Below the pieces are notes generated by a model. It did no database searches and was not told the DNA's origin. It was given only the letters and a program-made list of their open reading frames with translations. A stretch of 64,000 bases of DNA from positions 266 through 64,265 of the forward strand of contig JALRCR010000001.1 in the NCBI GenBank assembly GCA_023257255.1. Direction: 5' to 3'. Numbering within the stretch: position 1 is the stretch's first letter; each line of letters starts with the position of its first letter. This stretch comes from Gammaproteobacteria bacterium. Lineage in GTDB: Bacteria; Pseudomonadota; Gammaproteobacteria; Ga0077536. The position numbers and the translations under genes are program-made. Shown in pieces: positions 55,684 to 59,108 of the stretch.

Positions 55684-56103
55684 ATGAAAAAACTGCAACA
55701 GGGCTTTACCCTCATCGAACTGATGATCGTCGTCGCGATTATCGGCATTCTGGCCGCCGTCGCCATTCCCGCCTATCAGGACTACACCGTCCGCGCGAAA
55801 GTGACCGAAGGTATTGGTCTTGCCAGCGCCGCTCAGAGCAGCGTTGCCGAGTACTTCTCCGCCATCGGCACCCTGCCGATCACCAACGCCACTGCCGGTC
55901 TGCCGAGCTCGAACAGCTTGCGCGGTAACGCCGTGGACAACGTGAACGTCAGCGCCGCTGGCACCATCACGGTGGCCTTCTCCGGTGCGCCGATCGCCGC
56001 TTCGACCATCATCATCGCCCCGACGACCACCAACGGCGCCGTCGCCTGGTCTTGCACGGGTGGCACCTTGCTCGACAAATACCGTCCGGCGAACTGCCGC
56101 TAG
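55684..56103 (+). CDS. pilA: Type IVa major pilin
   Basis: AGGAG at 55673-55677 precedes ATG 55684. [34 protein letters not shown] is a class III signal with the conserved Glu5. The C-terminal disulfide loop is [15 protein letters not shown]. 139 aa. Confidence 0.93.
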
Positions 56104-56107
56104 TATT

Positions 56108-56177
56108 GAATCAAGCCATTGCTGGCTTGATTCTCCGCGCGATGCTGGCACTTGCGGCCAGCATCGCGTTTTCTCTC
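56108..56177 (+). terminator. pilA terminator: two consecutive perfect hairpins, the second with a T-tract
   Basis: GAATCAAGCC-attgct-GGCTTGATTC (56108-56133), then CGCGATGCTGGC-acttgcg-GCCAGCATCGCG (56138-56168) followed by TTTTCTCTC. Confidence 0.75.
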
Positions 56178-56220
56178 CCCGCCTGTGCGCGCCGCCCGAA
56201 GCGGGCGAGCTTTGCTTCCC

Positions 56221-58164
56221 ATGCGCTACCTAGTGCTCAAGTCTGACCGCGCCCCTGTTCTCGCCTTGCTGCTGCTCACGCTGCTCGCGTATTGGCCGGG
56301 CCTTAGCGGGCCCTTCGTGTTTGATGACTACGCCAACCTGCTTGAAGGTGCCTTCCGCGAACTGCACCACGCAAGCTGGGACAGCCTGCCGCAAATTGCA
56401 TTCGCGAGCGGCTCCGGGCCACTCCGGCGCCCGCTTAGCATGGGCAGTTTCGGCATCAATTTTCTGCTGACCGGGCTGGACCCGTTCTGGTTCAAGCTCA
56501 CTAACCTCGTCATCCATCTCGTCAACGGGCTGCTCGTCTGGCGGGTCGCGCGCCATCTCCTGCGGCTTGCAGGGCAGCCAGAGGAAGCGCAGCGCTGGCT
56601 TGCGCTGGCCCTCACCGGTCTGTGGCTGTTGCATCCGCTGCAATTGACCGCGGTGCTGTATGTGGTGCAACGAATGAGCAGCCTGTCCGGCACCTTTGTG
56701 CTGATGGGCATTCTTGTTTATCTGCAGGCCCGCAGCAGCATGCTGGTGGGTAGGGACGCCAGGCTGCGGCTCTGGCTGGCTGTCCCCGCGTGTCTGCTGC
56801 TGTCCGTGTTCGCCAAGGAAAATGGCGTTCTGCTGTTCCCGCTGCTCTTGGCGATAGAGGTCTCCTTGTTGCGGTTTCGCAGCAGTTTCACGCCCCGCCT
56901 TGGGAATCTGAACCAGTTCTATGGGCTGCTGCTCGTGCTGCCCATGCTGTGCGTGGCGGCCTATCTGCTGCGCCACCCGGAATGGCTAAATCACGGTGAT
57001 TCGGTCCGGGCATTTACGCCGCTGGAGCGCGTACTGACCGAACTGCGCGTGCTCTTCTACTACCTGCGCCTCCTGCTACTGCCTGATTTAGGGCAGTACG
57101 GACTCTTCTACGACGACTTCCAGATTTCCCGCAGCTTGCTGAACCCGATATCCACCCTGTTCGCGCTGGTGGGCTGGCTTGGGCTGCTGACGGCGGCGCT
57201 GGCCGCTCGCCAACGCTGGCCTTGGTTTACCTTTGCGGTGTGCTGGTATCTGGCCGCGCACGCGCTGGAATCGACTGTGGTGATGCTCGAACTCGTGCAT
57301 CTCCACCGCAACTATCTGGCCTGTTTGGGGCCCATGCTCGCGCTGCTGGTTGGGCTGGACCGCGCGCTCGCACCAACGCGTCCGCGGCTGGCGCGCAGCC
57401 TCGTCGTGGCACTGGTGCTCGCTCTCGCGGCGGGGACTGCATTACGTGCCGACCAGTGGCGGGATCCGCTGAATCTGGCGCGTTTCGAACTGCGGCACCG
57501 GCCGGATTCGCCGCGCGCTAACTATGAAATGGGACGGGTGTTGGCCGAATTCGCGGCCAAAATGGGTGACCCCGCGGTCGCTACCGCGGCCGGAGTCCAT
57601 CTTCGTCGGGCCGCCGAACTTGCGCCCCGCGAAGTCGGCGCGCTAGTCGGTCTTGCGCTGGTGGCCCATGGTCCGATGACCGCCGATGACTATGCGTTGT
57701 TGATCAAGCGCCTGCGCGCACGTCCCATGAATGCTCTGGATCTCGGTTATCTGCGGGCCCTCGCCAACTGCAAGGAGGCCAGCGGTTGCCGACTCCCACC
57801 GTCCCAGGTGCTGGGCGCTTTTGACGCGGCCCTCACCCACCCTGATCTGGCAGCGGACAACAAGGCCGCCTTGCTGTCGGCGCTGGGGGTGTATTTGGCT
57901 AACGCTTTGGGTGACGCCCACGCTAGCGTGGCTAGCCTGCGAGATGCGGTGGCCTTGTCCCCGCAGAACCCGGAACTACGACTTAACCTCGCCCAGGCGA
58001 TGTTGTACTTACCCGATTACGACGCCGCCGAAGCCGAACTCGCAATGGCAGAAAAGCTCGACCGCTGGCAGGTGAACGCGCCGACGCTGGCGCGCGTTCG
58101 GGCCGATTTGGCCGCCATGCGGGCTGCCCATGCGGCTGCTGCGCCAGCGGCGACAGCGCAGTAG
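56221..58164 (+). CDS. GT-C-fold membrane glycosyltransferase with C-terminal TPR domain (TMTC/DUF1736-like)
   Basis: The ORF at 56152..58164 is trimmed to ATG 56221, because 56152 lies inside the terminator hairpin. 647 aa. About 10 TM segments, with a first-loop acidic motif GPFVFDDYANL followed by RRPLSMGSFGINFLLTG...FWFKLTNLVIHLVNGLLV. The C-terminal ~230 aa are TPR-like. The family call comes from pattern memory, not a search. Confidence 0.6.
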   Translation: MRYLVLKSDRAPVLALLLLTLLAYWPGLSGPFVFDDYANLLEGAFRELHHASWDSLPQIAFASGSGPLRRPLSMGSFGINFLLTGLDPFWFKLTNLVIHLVNGLLVWRVARHLLRLAGQPEEAQRWLALALTGLWLLHPLQLTAVLYVVQRMSSLSGTFVLMGILVYLQARSSMLVGRDARLRLWLAVPACLLLSVFAKENGVLLFPLLLAIEVSLLRFRSSFTPRLGNLNQFYGLLLVLPMLCVAAYLLRHPEWLNHGDSVRAFTPLERVLTELRVLFYYLRLLLLPDLGQYGLFYDDFQISRSLLNPISTLFALVGWLGLLTAALAARQRWPWFTFAVCWYLAAHALESTVVMLELVHLHRNYLACLGPMLALLVGLDRALAPTRPRLARSLVVALVLALAAGTALRADQWRDPLNLARFELRHRPDSPRANYEMGRVLAEFAAKMGDPAVATAAGVHLRRAAELAPREVGALVGLALVAHGPMTADDYALLIKRLRARPMNALDLGYLRALANCKEASGCRLPPSQVLGAFDAALTHPDLAADNKAALLSALGVYLANALGDAHASVASLRDAVALSPQNPELRLNLAQAMLYLPDYDAAEAELAMAEKLDRWQVNAPTLARVRADLAAMRAAHAAAAPAATAQ

Positions 58165-58241
58165 GCGGGCGTTTGCTGTCGTGGCCGTTGCCGCCATACT
58201 GCGCTTGGGCAAGCTGCCCCTATGAGGCAAGGCAGGCGGTG

Positions 58242-59108
58242 ATGAATTCCGGGTCTTCGGTCGAACTTTCAATTATCTTGCCGGCCCGCAACGAGGCCGA
58301 CTCGCTACGGCAGTTGCTGCCCCAGCTGGTAGCCACCTACCCGCAGGCTGAAATCATTGTGGTGGATGATGGCTCCACCGATGACACCGCCGCGGTCTGT
58401 GCGGCCCATCCGGTACATCGGCTCAGCCACGCCGAGAGTCTGGGTAACGGGGCCGCTATCAAGGCCGGGGCACGCGCCGCGAACGGTGAGGTGCTGTGTT
58501 TCATGGATGCTGACAGCCAGCACAATCCGGCCGACATCGGGCGCCTGCTGGCAACGATGGCGCAAGGCTACGACATGGTGGTCGGCGCGCGCGACACGCG
58601 CGGGCAGGCCAGCGTGGGCAGGCGCTTGGCCAATGGCTTCTATAACCGGTTCGCCAGCTGGATGACGGGCCGTCGGGTGCAGGATTTAACCTCCGGCTTT
58701 CGTCTGGCCCGAGCCCGGTGCTTTCGTGAATTTCTGTTCCTGCTGCCTAACGGCTTTTCCTACCCCACCACCTGCACGATGGCGTTTTTCCGGGCGGGTT
58801 ACCGCATCGCCTACGTGCCAATCGACGTGCATCCCCGCATTGGCCACAGCCACATCAACCCGCTGAAGGACGGGCTGCGGTTTCTGCTGATCATTTTCAA
58901 AATCGGCACGTTGTTTTCGCCGCTGAAAATTTTTCTACCGATCAGCCTTGCGTTCTTTTTTACCGGCGCCGGCTACTACGTCTATACCTTTCTGCTTGAA
59001 CACCGCTTTACCAACATGAGTGCGCTGCTGTTGTCGAACGCCATTCTGATTTTTCTGATCGGGCTGGTATCGGAACAGATCACGATGTTGATCTACCGCG
59101 AGCGCTAG
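58242..59108 (+). CDS. Family 2 glycosyltransferase of the polyprenyl-phosphate sugar synthase type (GtrB/ArnC/DPM1-like)
   Basis: The ORF at 58173..59108 is trimmed to ATG 58242, giving 288 aa. LSIILPARNE, IIVVDDGSTDDT and a DxD motif (MDADSQH), plus two C-terminal TM helices (LKIFLPISLAFFFTGAGYYVYTFLL; LLLSNAILIFLIGLVSEQI). Confidence 0.78.
   Translation: MNSGSSVELSIILPARNEADSLRQLLPQLVATYPQAEIIVVDDGSTDDTAAVCAAHPVHRLSHAESLGNGAAIKAGARAANGEVLCFMDADSQHNPADIGRLLATMAQGYDMVVGARDTRGQASVGRRLANGFYNRFASWMTGRRVQDLTSGFRLARARCFREFLFLLPNGFSYPTTCTMAFFRAGYRIAYVPIDVHPRIGHSHINPLKDGLRFLLIIFKIGTLFSPLKIFLPISLAFFFTGAGYYVYTFLLEHRFTNMSALLLSNAILIFLIGLVSEQITMLIYRER

Follow-up and report, generated by a model that had tools for sequence, protein, structure and literature searches.

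The stretch of gammaproteobacterial DNA that was analysed (64 kb, referred to as the window) contains a type IV pilin locus, the features of which are collected in Table 1. Both the ORF list and reading of the sequence placed pilA, a 647-aa ORF (56221-58164) and a GT2 gene on the plus strand, with pilS and pilR upstream of pilA. The true start of pilS probably lies near 52491-52497. The position of the sigma-54-type promoter-like site fits, but its pattern was not enriched across the window, so that the site is weak evidence. The next gene after the GT2 gene is suhB, which had been described in the first-pass annotation as following directly; this position was correct, but by its ORF coordinates (59132-59935) suhB lies on the minus strand, and the two genes converge. 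Further downstream, a class I SAM methyltransferase gene is separated from the GT-C/GT2 pair by suhB and trmJ. Close homologues of this methyltransferase are found within the glycosylation cluster of four related loci (L044, L079, L045, and L009), and it is possible, although uncertain, that the enzyme is an accessory of the pilin cassette.

Table 1. Features of the pilin locus, in positions of the 64-kb window.
Feature	Position	Strand	Basis or remark
pilS, sensor kinase	52311..54113	+	Limits are those of the ORF; orthologue 5' of pilA in 23 related loci
pilR, sigma-54 response regulator	54110..55426	+	ORF; orthologue in 29 related loci
Sigma-54-type promoter-like site, TGGCACGCTTGCTGCT	55545..55560	+	Pattern search, 1 mismatch; ~125 nt 5' of pilA
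pilA, type IVa major prepilin, 139 aa (mature 132 aa)	55684..56103	+	Pfam Pilin 7.5e-22, N_methyl 2e-10
First hairpin 3' of pilA	56108..56133	+	RNAfold; 11-bp stem
Intrinsic terminator, hairpin (56137-56169) followed by TTTTCTCTCC	56137..56179	+	13-bp stem, 9 GC pairs
Membrane domain of the 647-aa protein, GT-C-type transferase (predicted), aa 1-415, 11 predicted TM helices	56221..57465	+	AlphaFold2, Foldseek
C-terminal TPR domain, aa 416-647 and stop, predicted periplasmic	57466..58164	+	AlphaFold2, PDB matches
GT2 polyprenyl-phosphate sugar synthase (predicted), 288 aa	58242..59108	+	PF00535 at 4e-32
Class I SAM methyltransferase	60797..61549	-	Pfam Methyltransf_11 at 4e-26

The assignment of pilA was confirmed by its ORF and by the Pfam Pilin and N_methyl matches. 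The prepilin carries a leader at the N-terminus and a Cys pair at the C-terminus, and Ser and Thr make up 23% of its globular domain; PilA is the proposed acceptor of glycosylation. The 117-nt gap between pilA and the 647-aa gene contains the terminator, and RNAfold analysis of positions 56104-56180 gave two hairpins with a folding energy of -42.7 kcal/mol. The first-pass annotation had correctly noted this strong terminator, and had regarded it as a caveat against a link with pilA. This objection does not hold, since a hairpin with T-run follows the pilin gene in 64 of 70 related loci, compared to 34 of 350 control windows (10%), and a terminator behind pilA is a published design feature of P. 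aeruginosa pilin-accessory cassettes (PMC11841053). It is likely that the element attenuates transcription from pilA into the accessory genes. No recognisable Shine-Dalgarno sequence or promoter was seen ahead of 56221 on reading the sequence.

The large polytopic ORF was found exactly as first described and contains the motifs GPFVFDDYANL, RRPLSMGSFGINF, and NLVIHLVNGLL. When aligned with family members that are 33-78% identical to the window's protein, D35, D36, R70, K92, H99, E350, and the HRNY stretch (362-365) were invariant in 52-58 sequences. [quoted passage not shown] Besides the DD motif, approximately 35 invariant residues are situated in predicted periplasmic loops of the membrane domain. 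AlphaFold2 returned confident models for the protein (pLDDT 90.6 and 89.6), and in a Foldseek comparison with the PDB, 9 of the 10 top matches of the membrane domain were GT-C enzymes (EmbB, ArnT, Pmt1/2, Pmt4, Stt3, and ALG6), with probabilities of 0.66-1.0 but weak E-values (0.08-0.5) and TM-scores of 0.34-0.46. An hhalign comparison of the family profile with the single E. coli ArnT sequence gave no signal, and in profile searches the membrane domain was covered by no Pfam or NCBIfam model. With the membrane domain alone as query, 4,316 clusters (50% identity) were retrieved at E<=1e-30. The fold comparison would place the large protein among glycosyltransferases, and the modelled fold together with the conserved residues makes it a probable GT-C-type transferase.

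The tail of the protein had been described as a TPR domain of about 230 aa, and this description is apt: its 232 residues (416-647) form an all-helical repeat domain in the AlphaFold2 model (pLDDT 90.6), and its best PDB structure matches are TPR proteins, including the TPR domain of OGT, although its Pfam TPR matches were sub-threshold only. We propose that this domain is the acceptor-binding part.

The GT2 protein contains DDG at residues 42-44, DAD at residues 89-91, and two hydrophobic C-terminal segments predicted to be TM helices (214-232 and 256-274), in agreement with the DxD motif and the two C-terminal helices seen before. Its top PDB sequence matches were ArnC (2e-14), GtrB (3e-14), and DPMS (2e-12), it is 31% identical to E. 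coli ArnC, and judging by these sequence matches the family is that of the GtrB/ArnC/DPM1-type polyprenyl-phosphate glycosyltransferases. The best NCBIfam matches were AglJ, Dol-P-hexose transferase, PgfS, ArnC, and PpgS; since all of them scored below the equivalog cut-off the sugar is undefined, a hexose or HexNAc being most likely. The GT2 matches and the fold search together support the earlier view of the pair as a polyprenyl-phosphate sugar synthase and a GT-C-type transferase.

A genome scan yielded at least 592 related loci, and neighbourhoods were counted in the best 80 of these at least 592. In 67 of the 70 loci in which this could be tested, the GT-C gene is directly preceded by a pilin gene, with a median gap of 75 bp, so that relatives keep the linkage and the earlier reservation that the adjacency to pilA may be coincidental is contradicted. 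A GT2 orthologue follows the GT-C gene directly in 48 of 68 loci, on the same strand and starting a median 31 bp after it, and 58 of these 68 loci have one within 8 kb; the 10 loci without it indicate that the GT-C enzyme can use other donors. The related loci are from Beta- and Gammaproteobacteria, among them Acinetobacter, Pseudomonas, Dyella, Undibacterium, Variovorax, and Dechloromonas. Compared with the proteins of the window, the median identity was 63% for GT2, 40% for the GT-C membrane domain, 39% for the pilin head, and 27% for the TPR domain, the fastest-diverging part. Such a pattern would fit a donor that stays the same and an acceptor-binding domain that changes along with a variable pilin. 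Taken as comparative sequence evidence, gene order and divergence strongly support a functional link between pilA and the pair. As noted before, no GtrA-like flippase adjoins the genes; in fact, none was present anywhere in the 64-kb window, where no small ORF encoded at least three TM segments. No conserved small membrane protein occurred among the neighbours of the related loci, and a flippase of the MOP/Wzx type was found in some of these loci only. Some relatives are named 'protein O-mannosyl-transferase' in IMG.

The first-pass annotation called the system non-canonical and its enzyme class one not known at pili. This is no longer tenable, since TfpW of P. aeruginosa, which the annotation had itself listed, is a GT-C protein of 646 aa with 11 TM helices and a TPR domain at the C-terminus, the gene of which comes directly after pilA; its DDX motif in loop 1 is essential, it carries a YX6PFX7P motif in periplasmic loop 4, and its authors modelled the membrane part on ArnT and the TPR part on OGT (bioRxiv 10.1101/2020.04.19.049825). 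TfpW is the D-arabinofuranosyltransferase of group IV pilins in P. aeruginosa / P. paraeruginosa (Pa5196, PA7), and its donor, decaprenyl-P-Araf, is made by PsPA7_6245-6249, which are unlinked in PA7 (bioRxiv 10.1101/2020.04.19.049825). We compared TfpW (PA7, AAM52060.1) by its published motifs and architecture; homologue searches and a cluster look-up yielded no entry from P. aeruginosa or A. venetianus. On this basis, the two proteins are alike in gene position directly 3' of pilA with a terminator between, in length (~646 versus 647 aa), in topology (here predicted as a cytoplasmic N-terminus, 11 TM helices, and a periplasmic TPR domain), in the DDX motif of periplasmic loop 1 (here D35-D36-Y), and in the kinds of structure match (ArnT and the OGT TPR domain). 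They differ in that only YX6P (Y281-P288) is present here, the full YX6PFX7P being found in 0 of 360 family sequences, in the donor, which presumably comes from the adjacent GT2 and not from a D-arabinofuranose pathway, and in the lack of tfpX behind the gene. We know of no flippase for the TfpW system. By this analogy, the cassette is most likely a TfpW-type variation with a different donor supply and no new mechanism.

The same division of labour is found in other systems. In O-antigen glucosylation (GtrA/GtrB/GtrC) and in lipid A modification with Ara4N (ArnC/ArnE-F/ArnT), a GT2 loads Und-P with one sugar and a GT-C enzyme transfers it in the periplasm, as proposed here, and the window's GT2 is closest to ArnC and GtrB; however, their acceptor is a glycan or lipid A instead of a protein, a GtrA or ArnE/F-type flippase does not adjoin the genes here, and our GT-C enzyme bears a TPR domain. 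The streptococcal pairs GtrB+PgtC2 and PgfS+PgfM1 combine an Und-P-sugar synthase with a GT-C enzyme and attach single sugars to Ser/Thr residues of proteins outside the cytoplasm (PMC12041528). PgfS is among the NCBIfam matches of the GT2, but these Gram-positive systems have a broad specificity for Ser/Thr-rich disordered regions, and lack both a TPR domain and linkage to a pilin. Eukaryotic TMTC1-4, which are protein O-mannosyltransferases, have 11 TM helices, a conserved loop-1 DD, and a lumenal C-terminal TPR domain, and receive their donor from the GT2 Dol-P-Man synthase DPM1 (PMC7801869). The first-pass label 'TMTC-like' is correct for the architecture, as the 647-aa protein shares the 11 predicted TM helices, the loop-1 DD, and a non-cytoplasmic C-terminal TPR domain, but not for family membership: DUF1736 (PF08409), the TMTC hallmark, as well as PMT and PMT_2, gave no match in 52 family members at E<=0.1 or in 8 isolated TM7-TM8 loop segments at E<=10. 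Moreover, the TMTC acceptors are cadherins, as opposed to the pilin proposed here. TfpO/PilO and PglL also glycosylate pilins, and tfpO too is located directly after pilA with a terminator between, but these enzymes are Wzy_C/O-antigen-ligase-like and transfer preassembled Und-PP-linked oligosaccharides en bloc, whereas Pfam detected no Wzy_C or O-antigen ligase domain in the 647-aa protein or its 52 relatives.

Taken together, the locus probably encodes a TfpW-type pilin-accessory cassette for periplasmic O-glycosylation of the major type IV pilin, with an adjacent GtrB/ArnC-type donor synthase. In such a scheme, pilA would be strongly transcribed from a PilS/PilR-controlled promoter, most transcripts would end at 56137-56179, and read-through would keep the two genes behind it expressed at a low level. 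The GT2, held by its two C-terminal TM anchors, would load undecaprenyl phosphate with a single sugar, taken from a nucleotide sugar, at the cytoplasmic face, and the lipid-linked sugar would then be flipped across the membrane. The 647-aa GT-C enzyme may subsequently use its D35-D36 loop-1 motif to move the sugar onto Ser/Thr of the pilin, held by the C-terminal TPR domain; we infer this acceptor and chemistry from gene order and the TfpW precedent. The likely benefit, if P. aeruginosa is taken as a guide, would be a pilus masked from pilus-specific phages and/or aided pilin stability. As regards expression, the strong terminator and the missing Shine-Dalgarno sequence ahead of 56221 weigh against the cassette. 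Other points against it are the weak Foldseek E-values, the ArnT comparison without signal, the membrane domain without a Pfam or NCBIfam model, the lack of a flippase gene in the window, and the 10 loci without GT2.

The pair might be an active lipid-linked glycosylation system with a main acceptor other than the major pilin, such as other periplasmic or surface proteins, minor pilins, LPS, or an envelope glycan. Glycans are indeed the usual target of GT-C and GT2 pairs (Gtr, Arn; PMC11127046), many related loci run on into genes of the polysaccharide type (GT4, DegT, a Wzx-like flippase, and NDP-sugar enzymes), and in locus L063 the GT-C gene stands behind a minor-pilin cluster and not behind pilA. 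However, the position directly after the major pilin gene with a conserved attenuator between, the TPR domain as a protein-binding module, and the pilin as substrate of TfpW, the sole characterised enzyme of the same architecture and position, make this unlikely. It is more improbable still that the protein is a TfpW-type pilin transferase with a donor from elsewhere in the genome (e.g., decaprenyl-phospho-D-arabinofuranose), and that the adjacent GT2 belongs to another pathway. TfpW does work without an adjacent GT2, and the 10 of 68 loci without a nearby GT2 would fit such a supply, but the GT2 orthologues are too well conserved in sequence, spacing, and strand, and on reading the ORFs of the window and of the inspected loci without GT2, we recognised no genes of the DprE1/DprE2/UbiA kind, which make the arabinofuranose donor.

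One source calls a relative 'pilus assembly protein PilF', P. aeruginosa PilF is among the TPR structure matches of the tail, and accessory proteins of the TfpY type are non-enzymatic (PMC11841053), so the TPR membrane protein could be conceived as a non-catalytic assembly or chaperone factor whose adjacency to GT2 is irrelevant to glycosylation. The 'PilF' label derives from the TPR part alone, though, and the invariant periplasmic residues, the 11-TM GT-C-like domain, and the conserved GT2 partner make such a role very improbable. We give equally little credence to the idea that the adjacency is a relic, with accessory genes silent behind the terminator and an unmodified pilin. The strong tandem hairpins and the missing expression signals ahead of 56221 are in keeping with silence, but both ORFs are intact, every invariant residue is kept, and family members, like functional P. 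aeruginosa cassettes, as a rule have a terminator in this place.

Glycosylation of type IV pilins changes phage susceptibility, immune recognition, and pilus function. To our knowledge, the pilin glycosylation enzymes characterised so far are of a few types only, TfpO/PglL and TfpW. A cassette as described here gives a concrete, testable function to a very large number of proteins labelled 'hypothetical' or 'tetratricopeptide repeat protein', including those of Acinetobacter, Pseudomonas, Xanthomonadales, and many Betaproteobacteria. The cassette also suggests that TfpW-type glycosylation reaches well beyond arabinose, by means of a simple Und-P-sugar donor, and the minimal two-gene form may be of use in glycoengineering. 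A more far-reaching idea, which we consider doubtful, is that the 647-aa protein belongs to a very large GT-C and TPR family that is distinct from TfpW, dedicated to pilin O-glycosylation, and fed by its own highly conserved Und-P-sugar synthase, as a minimal two-gene system without a dedicated flippase. If this were true, the pair would correspond in bacteria to what TMTC and DPM1 are in eukaryotic O-mannosylation, and environmental Beta- and Gammaproteobacteria would as a rule, and not exceptionally, glycosylate their pili.

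The three genes of the cassette, pilA, the gene for the 647-aa GT-C/TPR protein and the gene for the 288-aa GT2, were recovered by ORF calling and sequence reading where the first-pass annotation had placed them, and their positions are listed below together with those of surrounding features.

Features of the pilA cassette and its surroundings in the window
Feature	Position	Strand	Remarks
dcw cell-division cluster	13401-32183		complete
pilD, pilC, pilB	39088-42972	-	
72-aa ORF	52286-52504	+	just upstream of pilS
Sigma-54-like site	55545-55560		TGGCACGCTTGCTGCT, upstream of pilA; from a pattern search, weak evidence by itself
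pilA	55684-56103	+	type IVa prepilin; Pfam Pilin 7.5e-22, N_methyl 2e-10
First hairpin after pilA	56108-56133	+	hairpin prediction; no T-run behind
Second hairpin after pilA	56137-56169	+	13 bp, 9 GC pairs, then TTTTCTCTCC; scores as terminator
Third small GC hairpin	56193-56207	+	just ahead of GT-C start codon
647-aa ORF	56221-58164	+	carries the motifs GPFVFDDYANL and NLVIHLVNGLL quoted at first pass
GT2	58242-59108	+	DAD at residues 89-91; two C-terminal hydrophobic helices; PF00535 4e-32
suhB	59132-59935	-	immediately after GT2
Class I SAM methyltransferase	60797-61549	-	past suhB and trmJ; between trmJ and purM

Besides its prepilin leader, the pilA product contains a C-terminal Cys pair, and pilS and pilR are located directly upstream of the gene. 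The product of the 72-aa ORF begins with a TM segment and has a tail rich in Cys (CQACGVYV...CQAH). Because this ORF runs into the longest pilS ORF, the actual pilS start is probably near 52491-52497. In Pseudomonas, pilD, pilC and pilB adjoin pilA, whereas in the window they lie ~13 kb away, with clpB, nadE and sucCD in between. The housekeeping gene suhB, which had been described as following directly, is indeed the immediate neighbour of the GT2 gene but is encoded on the opposite strand.

A genome scan with the 647-aa protein, using one genome per species, yielded at least 592 loci with a relative, and the neighbourhood counts given here rest on the best 80 of these (numbered L001 onwards). 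Of the 70 loci with sufficient flank, 67 had a same-strand pilin ORF ending no more than 700 bp upstream (median gap 75 bp), thus the pilin linkage seen in the window is kept among relatives. A GT2 orthologue (E<1e-50) started within 600 bp downstream in 48/68 loci, with a median gap of 31 bp, and was present anywhere within 8 kb in 58/68. The loci are found among Acinetobacter, Pseudomonas, Cycloclasticus, Methylococcaceae, Undibacterium, Variovorax, Dechloromonas, Gallionella, Xanthomonadales (Dyella, Rudaea, Dokdonella, Fulvimonas, Arenimonas) and many uncultured lineages. One of the three exceptions, L063 (5728-9914) from a Cycloclasticus MAG, carries the GT-C/TPR gene after a minor-pilin cluster instead of pilA; the last gene of this cluster encodes a 654-aa protein whose N-terminus is of prepilin type, and there is no GT2 near the GT-C/TPR gene. 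Of note, L001 and L020 are MAG contigs titled 'Klebsiella pneumoniae', with close relatives at 54% and 37% identity; their gene order is that of the window and non-enterobacterial, and the labels are probably wrong.

The first-pass annotation regarded the terminator between pilA and the two downstream genes as its main caveat. The two consecutive hairpins 3' of pilA are strong (combined -42.7 kcal/mol), with a T-run behind the second only, and no Shine-Dalgarno sequence was visible before the GT-C start codon. A terminator-like hairpin with a T-run 3' of pilA was present in 64 of 70 loci, compared to 34 of 350 control windows. Since the literature describes a terminator after the pilin gene as characteristic of pilin-accessory cassettes, and proposes that it acts as an attenuator of accessory-gene expression (PMC11841053), the arrangement counts in favour of a cassette instead of against it.

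The profile-HMM search matched the GT2 to Glycos_transf_2, as had been expected. Among proteins of solved structure, the nearest in sequence are ArnC (2e-14), Synechocystis GtrB (3e-14) and an archaeal Dol-P-Man synthase (2e-12), and its catalytic domain is 31% identical to that of E. coli ArnC. The top NCBIfam matches were AglJ, Dol-P-hexose transferase, PgfS, ArnC and PpgS, all under the equivalog cut-offs. Together, these matches identify the GT2 as a predicted polyprenyl-phosphate monosaccharide synthase.

Assigning the 647-aa protein was less straightforward. No Pfam or NCBIfam model matched the membrane domain of this protein or of any of the 52 relatives scanned, and PDB sequence searches, with either the single sequence or the family profile, returned TPR proteins only. 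Alignment of the family profile with E. coli ArnT using hhalign gave no signal, which is uninformative as the template was a single sequence. An AlphaFold2 model based on 52 homologues (pLDDT 90.6, pTM 0.91) placed 11 TM helices ahead of a repeat domain built entirely of helices (residues 416-647). When the full-length model was used for a structure search, TPR proteins, the OGT TPR domain among them, swamped the results, therefore the membrane domain was modelled separately (pLDDT 89.6). GT-C enzymes (EmbB, ArnT, Pmt1/Pmt2, Pmt4, Stt3 and ALG6) made up nine of the top ten PDB matches for this domain, but the matches were weak (E 0.08-0.5, probability 0.66-1.0, TM-score 0.34-0.46). Residues D35-D36, located directly after TM1, are invariant in relatives down to 33% identity, as are R70, K92, H99, Y281-x6-P288, E350 and H362-R363-N364-Y365. 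Based on the modelled fold, the topology and the loop-1 DD motif, we accept the protein as a predicted GT-C enzyme.

As to the type of GT-C enzyme, the first-pass annotation had called it TMTC-like. It does have the architecture of TMTC proteins, GT-C plus TPR with a loop-1 DD motif (PMC7801869), but the DUF1736 segment that marks that family gave no match, also when the loop was searched alone at E<=10. DUF1736 and PMT models matched neither the protein nor the 52 relatives scanned, and membership of these families was rejected. TfpO/PglL enzymes, which glycosylate pilin, carry a Wzy_C domain, and a TfpO/PglL-type enzyme was excluded because the 647-aa protein lacks this domain. By description, the closest known enzyme is TfpW, the group IV pilin D-arabinofuranosyltransferase of P. 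aeruginosa. A DDX motif in periplasmic loop 1 is essential in TfpW, loop 4 holds a YX6PFX7P motif, the TPR domain is large and periplasmic, and the gene immediately follows pilA; the membrane part of TfpW was modelled on ArnT and its TPR part on OGT, and its homologues adjoin pilA in several species (bioRxiv 10.1101/2020.04.19.049825). The 647-aa protein shares all features of this architecture except for part of the proline motif, whose second half none of the 360 family sequences contains. Thus, contrary to the first-pass framing, the enzyme class is not new to pili. Homologue searches with the window protein, an Acinetobacter tianfuensis relative and a Pseudomonas MAG relative yielded no entries from P. 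aeruginosa, A. venetianus, Azotobacter or Teredinibacter, and neither did a look-up of ten Acinetobacter clusters. The two systems differ in donor supply: the donor of TfpW, decaprenyl-P-D-Araf, is made by a DprE1/DprE2/UbiA-like cluster (bioRxiv 10.1101/2020.04.19.049825), whereas the window contains an adjacent GtrB/ArnC-type GT2. By analogy, the window cassette would be TfpW-type with a different donor-supply gene. Bacterial pairs in which an Und-P-sugar synthase cooperates with a GT-C protein O-glycosyltransferase have been demonstrated experimentally in streptococci, namely GtrB/PgtC2 and PgfS/PgfM1 (PMC12041528). Full-text literature searches found no paper in which a TfpW-like gene and a GT2 occur as a pair beside pilA.

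Across loci, median identity to the window proteins was 63% for the GT2, 40% for the GT-C membrane domain, 39% for the pilin globular domain and 27% for the TPR domain, a pattern in keeping with a donor synthesis step that is conserved and a putative acceptor-binding domain that diverges with the hypervariable pilin. In an alignment of 70 cassette pilins, several Ser/Thr columns were partly conserved, without a clear sequon, and no conserved acceptor Ser/Thr could be singled out. Tandem pairs of GT-C/TPR paralogues are found behind pilA in 21/80 loci (including L005, L008, L009, L012, L017, L018, L020 and L027), with the loop-1 DD intact in most, and could glycosylate in steps or by polymerisation, as has been suggested for TfpW. 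Judged by eye, no simple rule relates GT-C to pilin gene number across loci. The window cassette is the minimal form. Many loci run on into variable glycan genes, comprising GT4 (32 loci), a second GT2, SAM methyltransferases, a DegT aminotransferase, a CDP-glucose-dehydratase-like enzyme, a nucleotidyltransferase and a MOP/Wzx flippase, and richer cassettes also add a PhyH dioxygenase, a radical-SAM/SPASM enzyme or NDP-sugar-modifying enzymes after the GT2 (L044 9965-14969, L009 4093-6955, L079 13082-16668), which suggests more complex or modified glycans in some lineages. The SAM methyltransferase of the window may belong to the system as well, methylating the sugar or the donor, because close homologues sit within the pilA-GT-C-GT2 clusters of L044 (E 2e-94), L079, L045 and L009. 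Its partial PADLOC 'mad2' match probably reflects just the generic methyltransferase domain; PADLOC has a model for neither the GT2 nor the GT-C/TPR enzyme.

No relatives were found in IMG/VR viral contigs or PLSDB plasmids, and phage or plasmid carriage was rejected on these grounds. Conserved synteny and the domain evidence lend good support to the pilin O-glycosylation module proposed at first pass, in which a donor synthase would act together with a GT-C/TPR transferase, and we consider it likely. Among 1.84 billion cluster representatives, the membrane domain alone retrieved 4,316 clusters (50% identity) at E<=1e-30 and 12,138 at E<=1e-10, and nearly all of the best 150 matches were ~640-690 aa long. 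Relatives are named 'hypothetical', 'TPR protein' or occasionally 'PilF' or 'protein O-mannosyl-transferase' in the databases. The GT-C/TPR family is therefore very large and effectively unannotated, and the cassette gives it a testable function.
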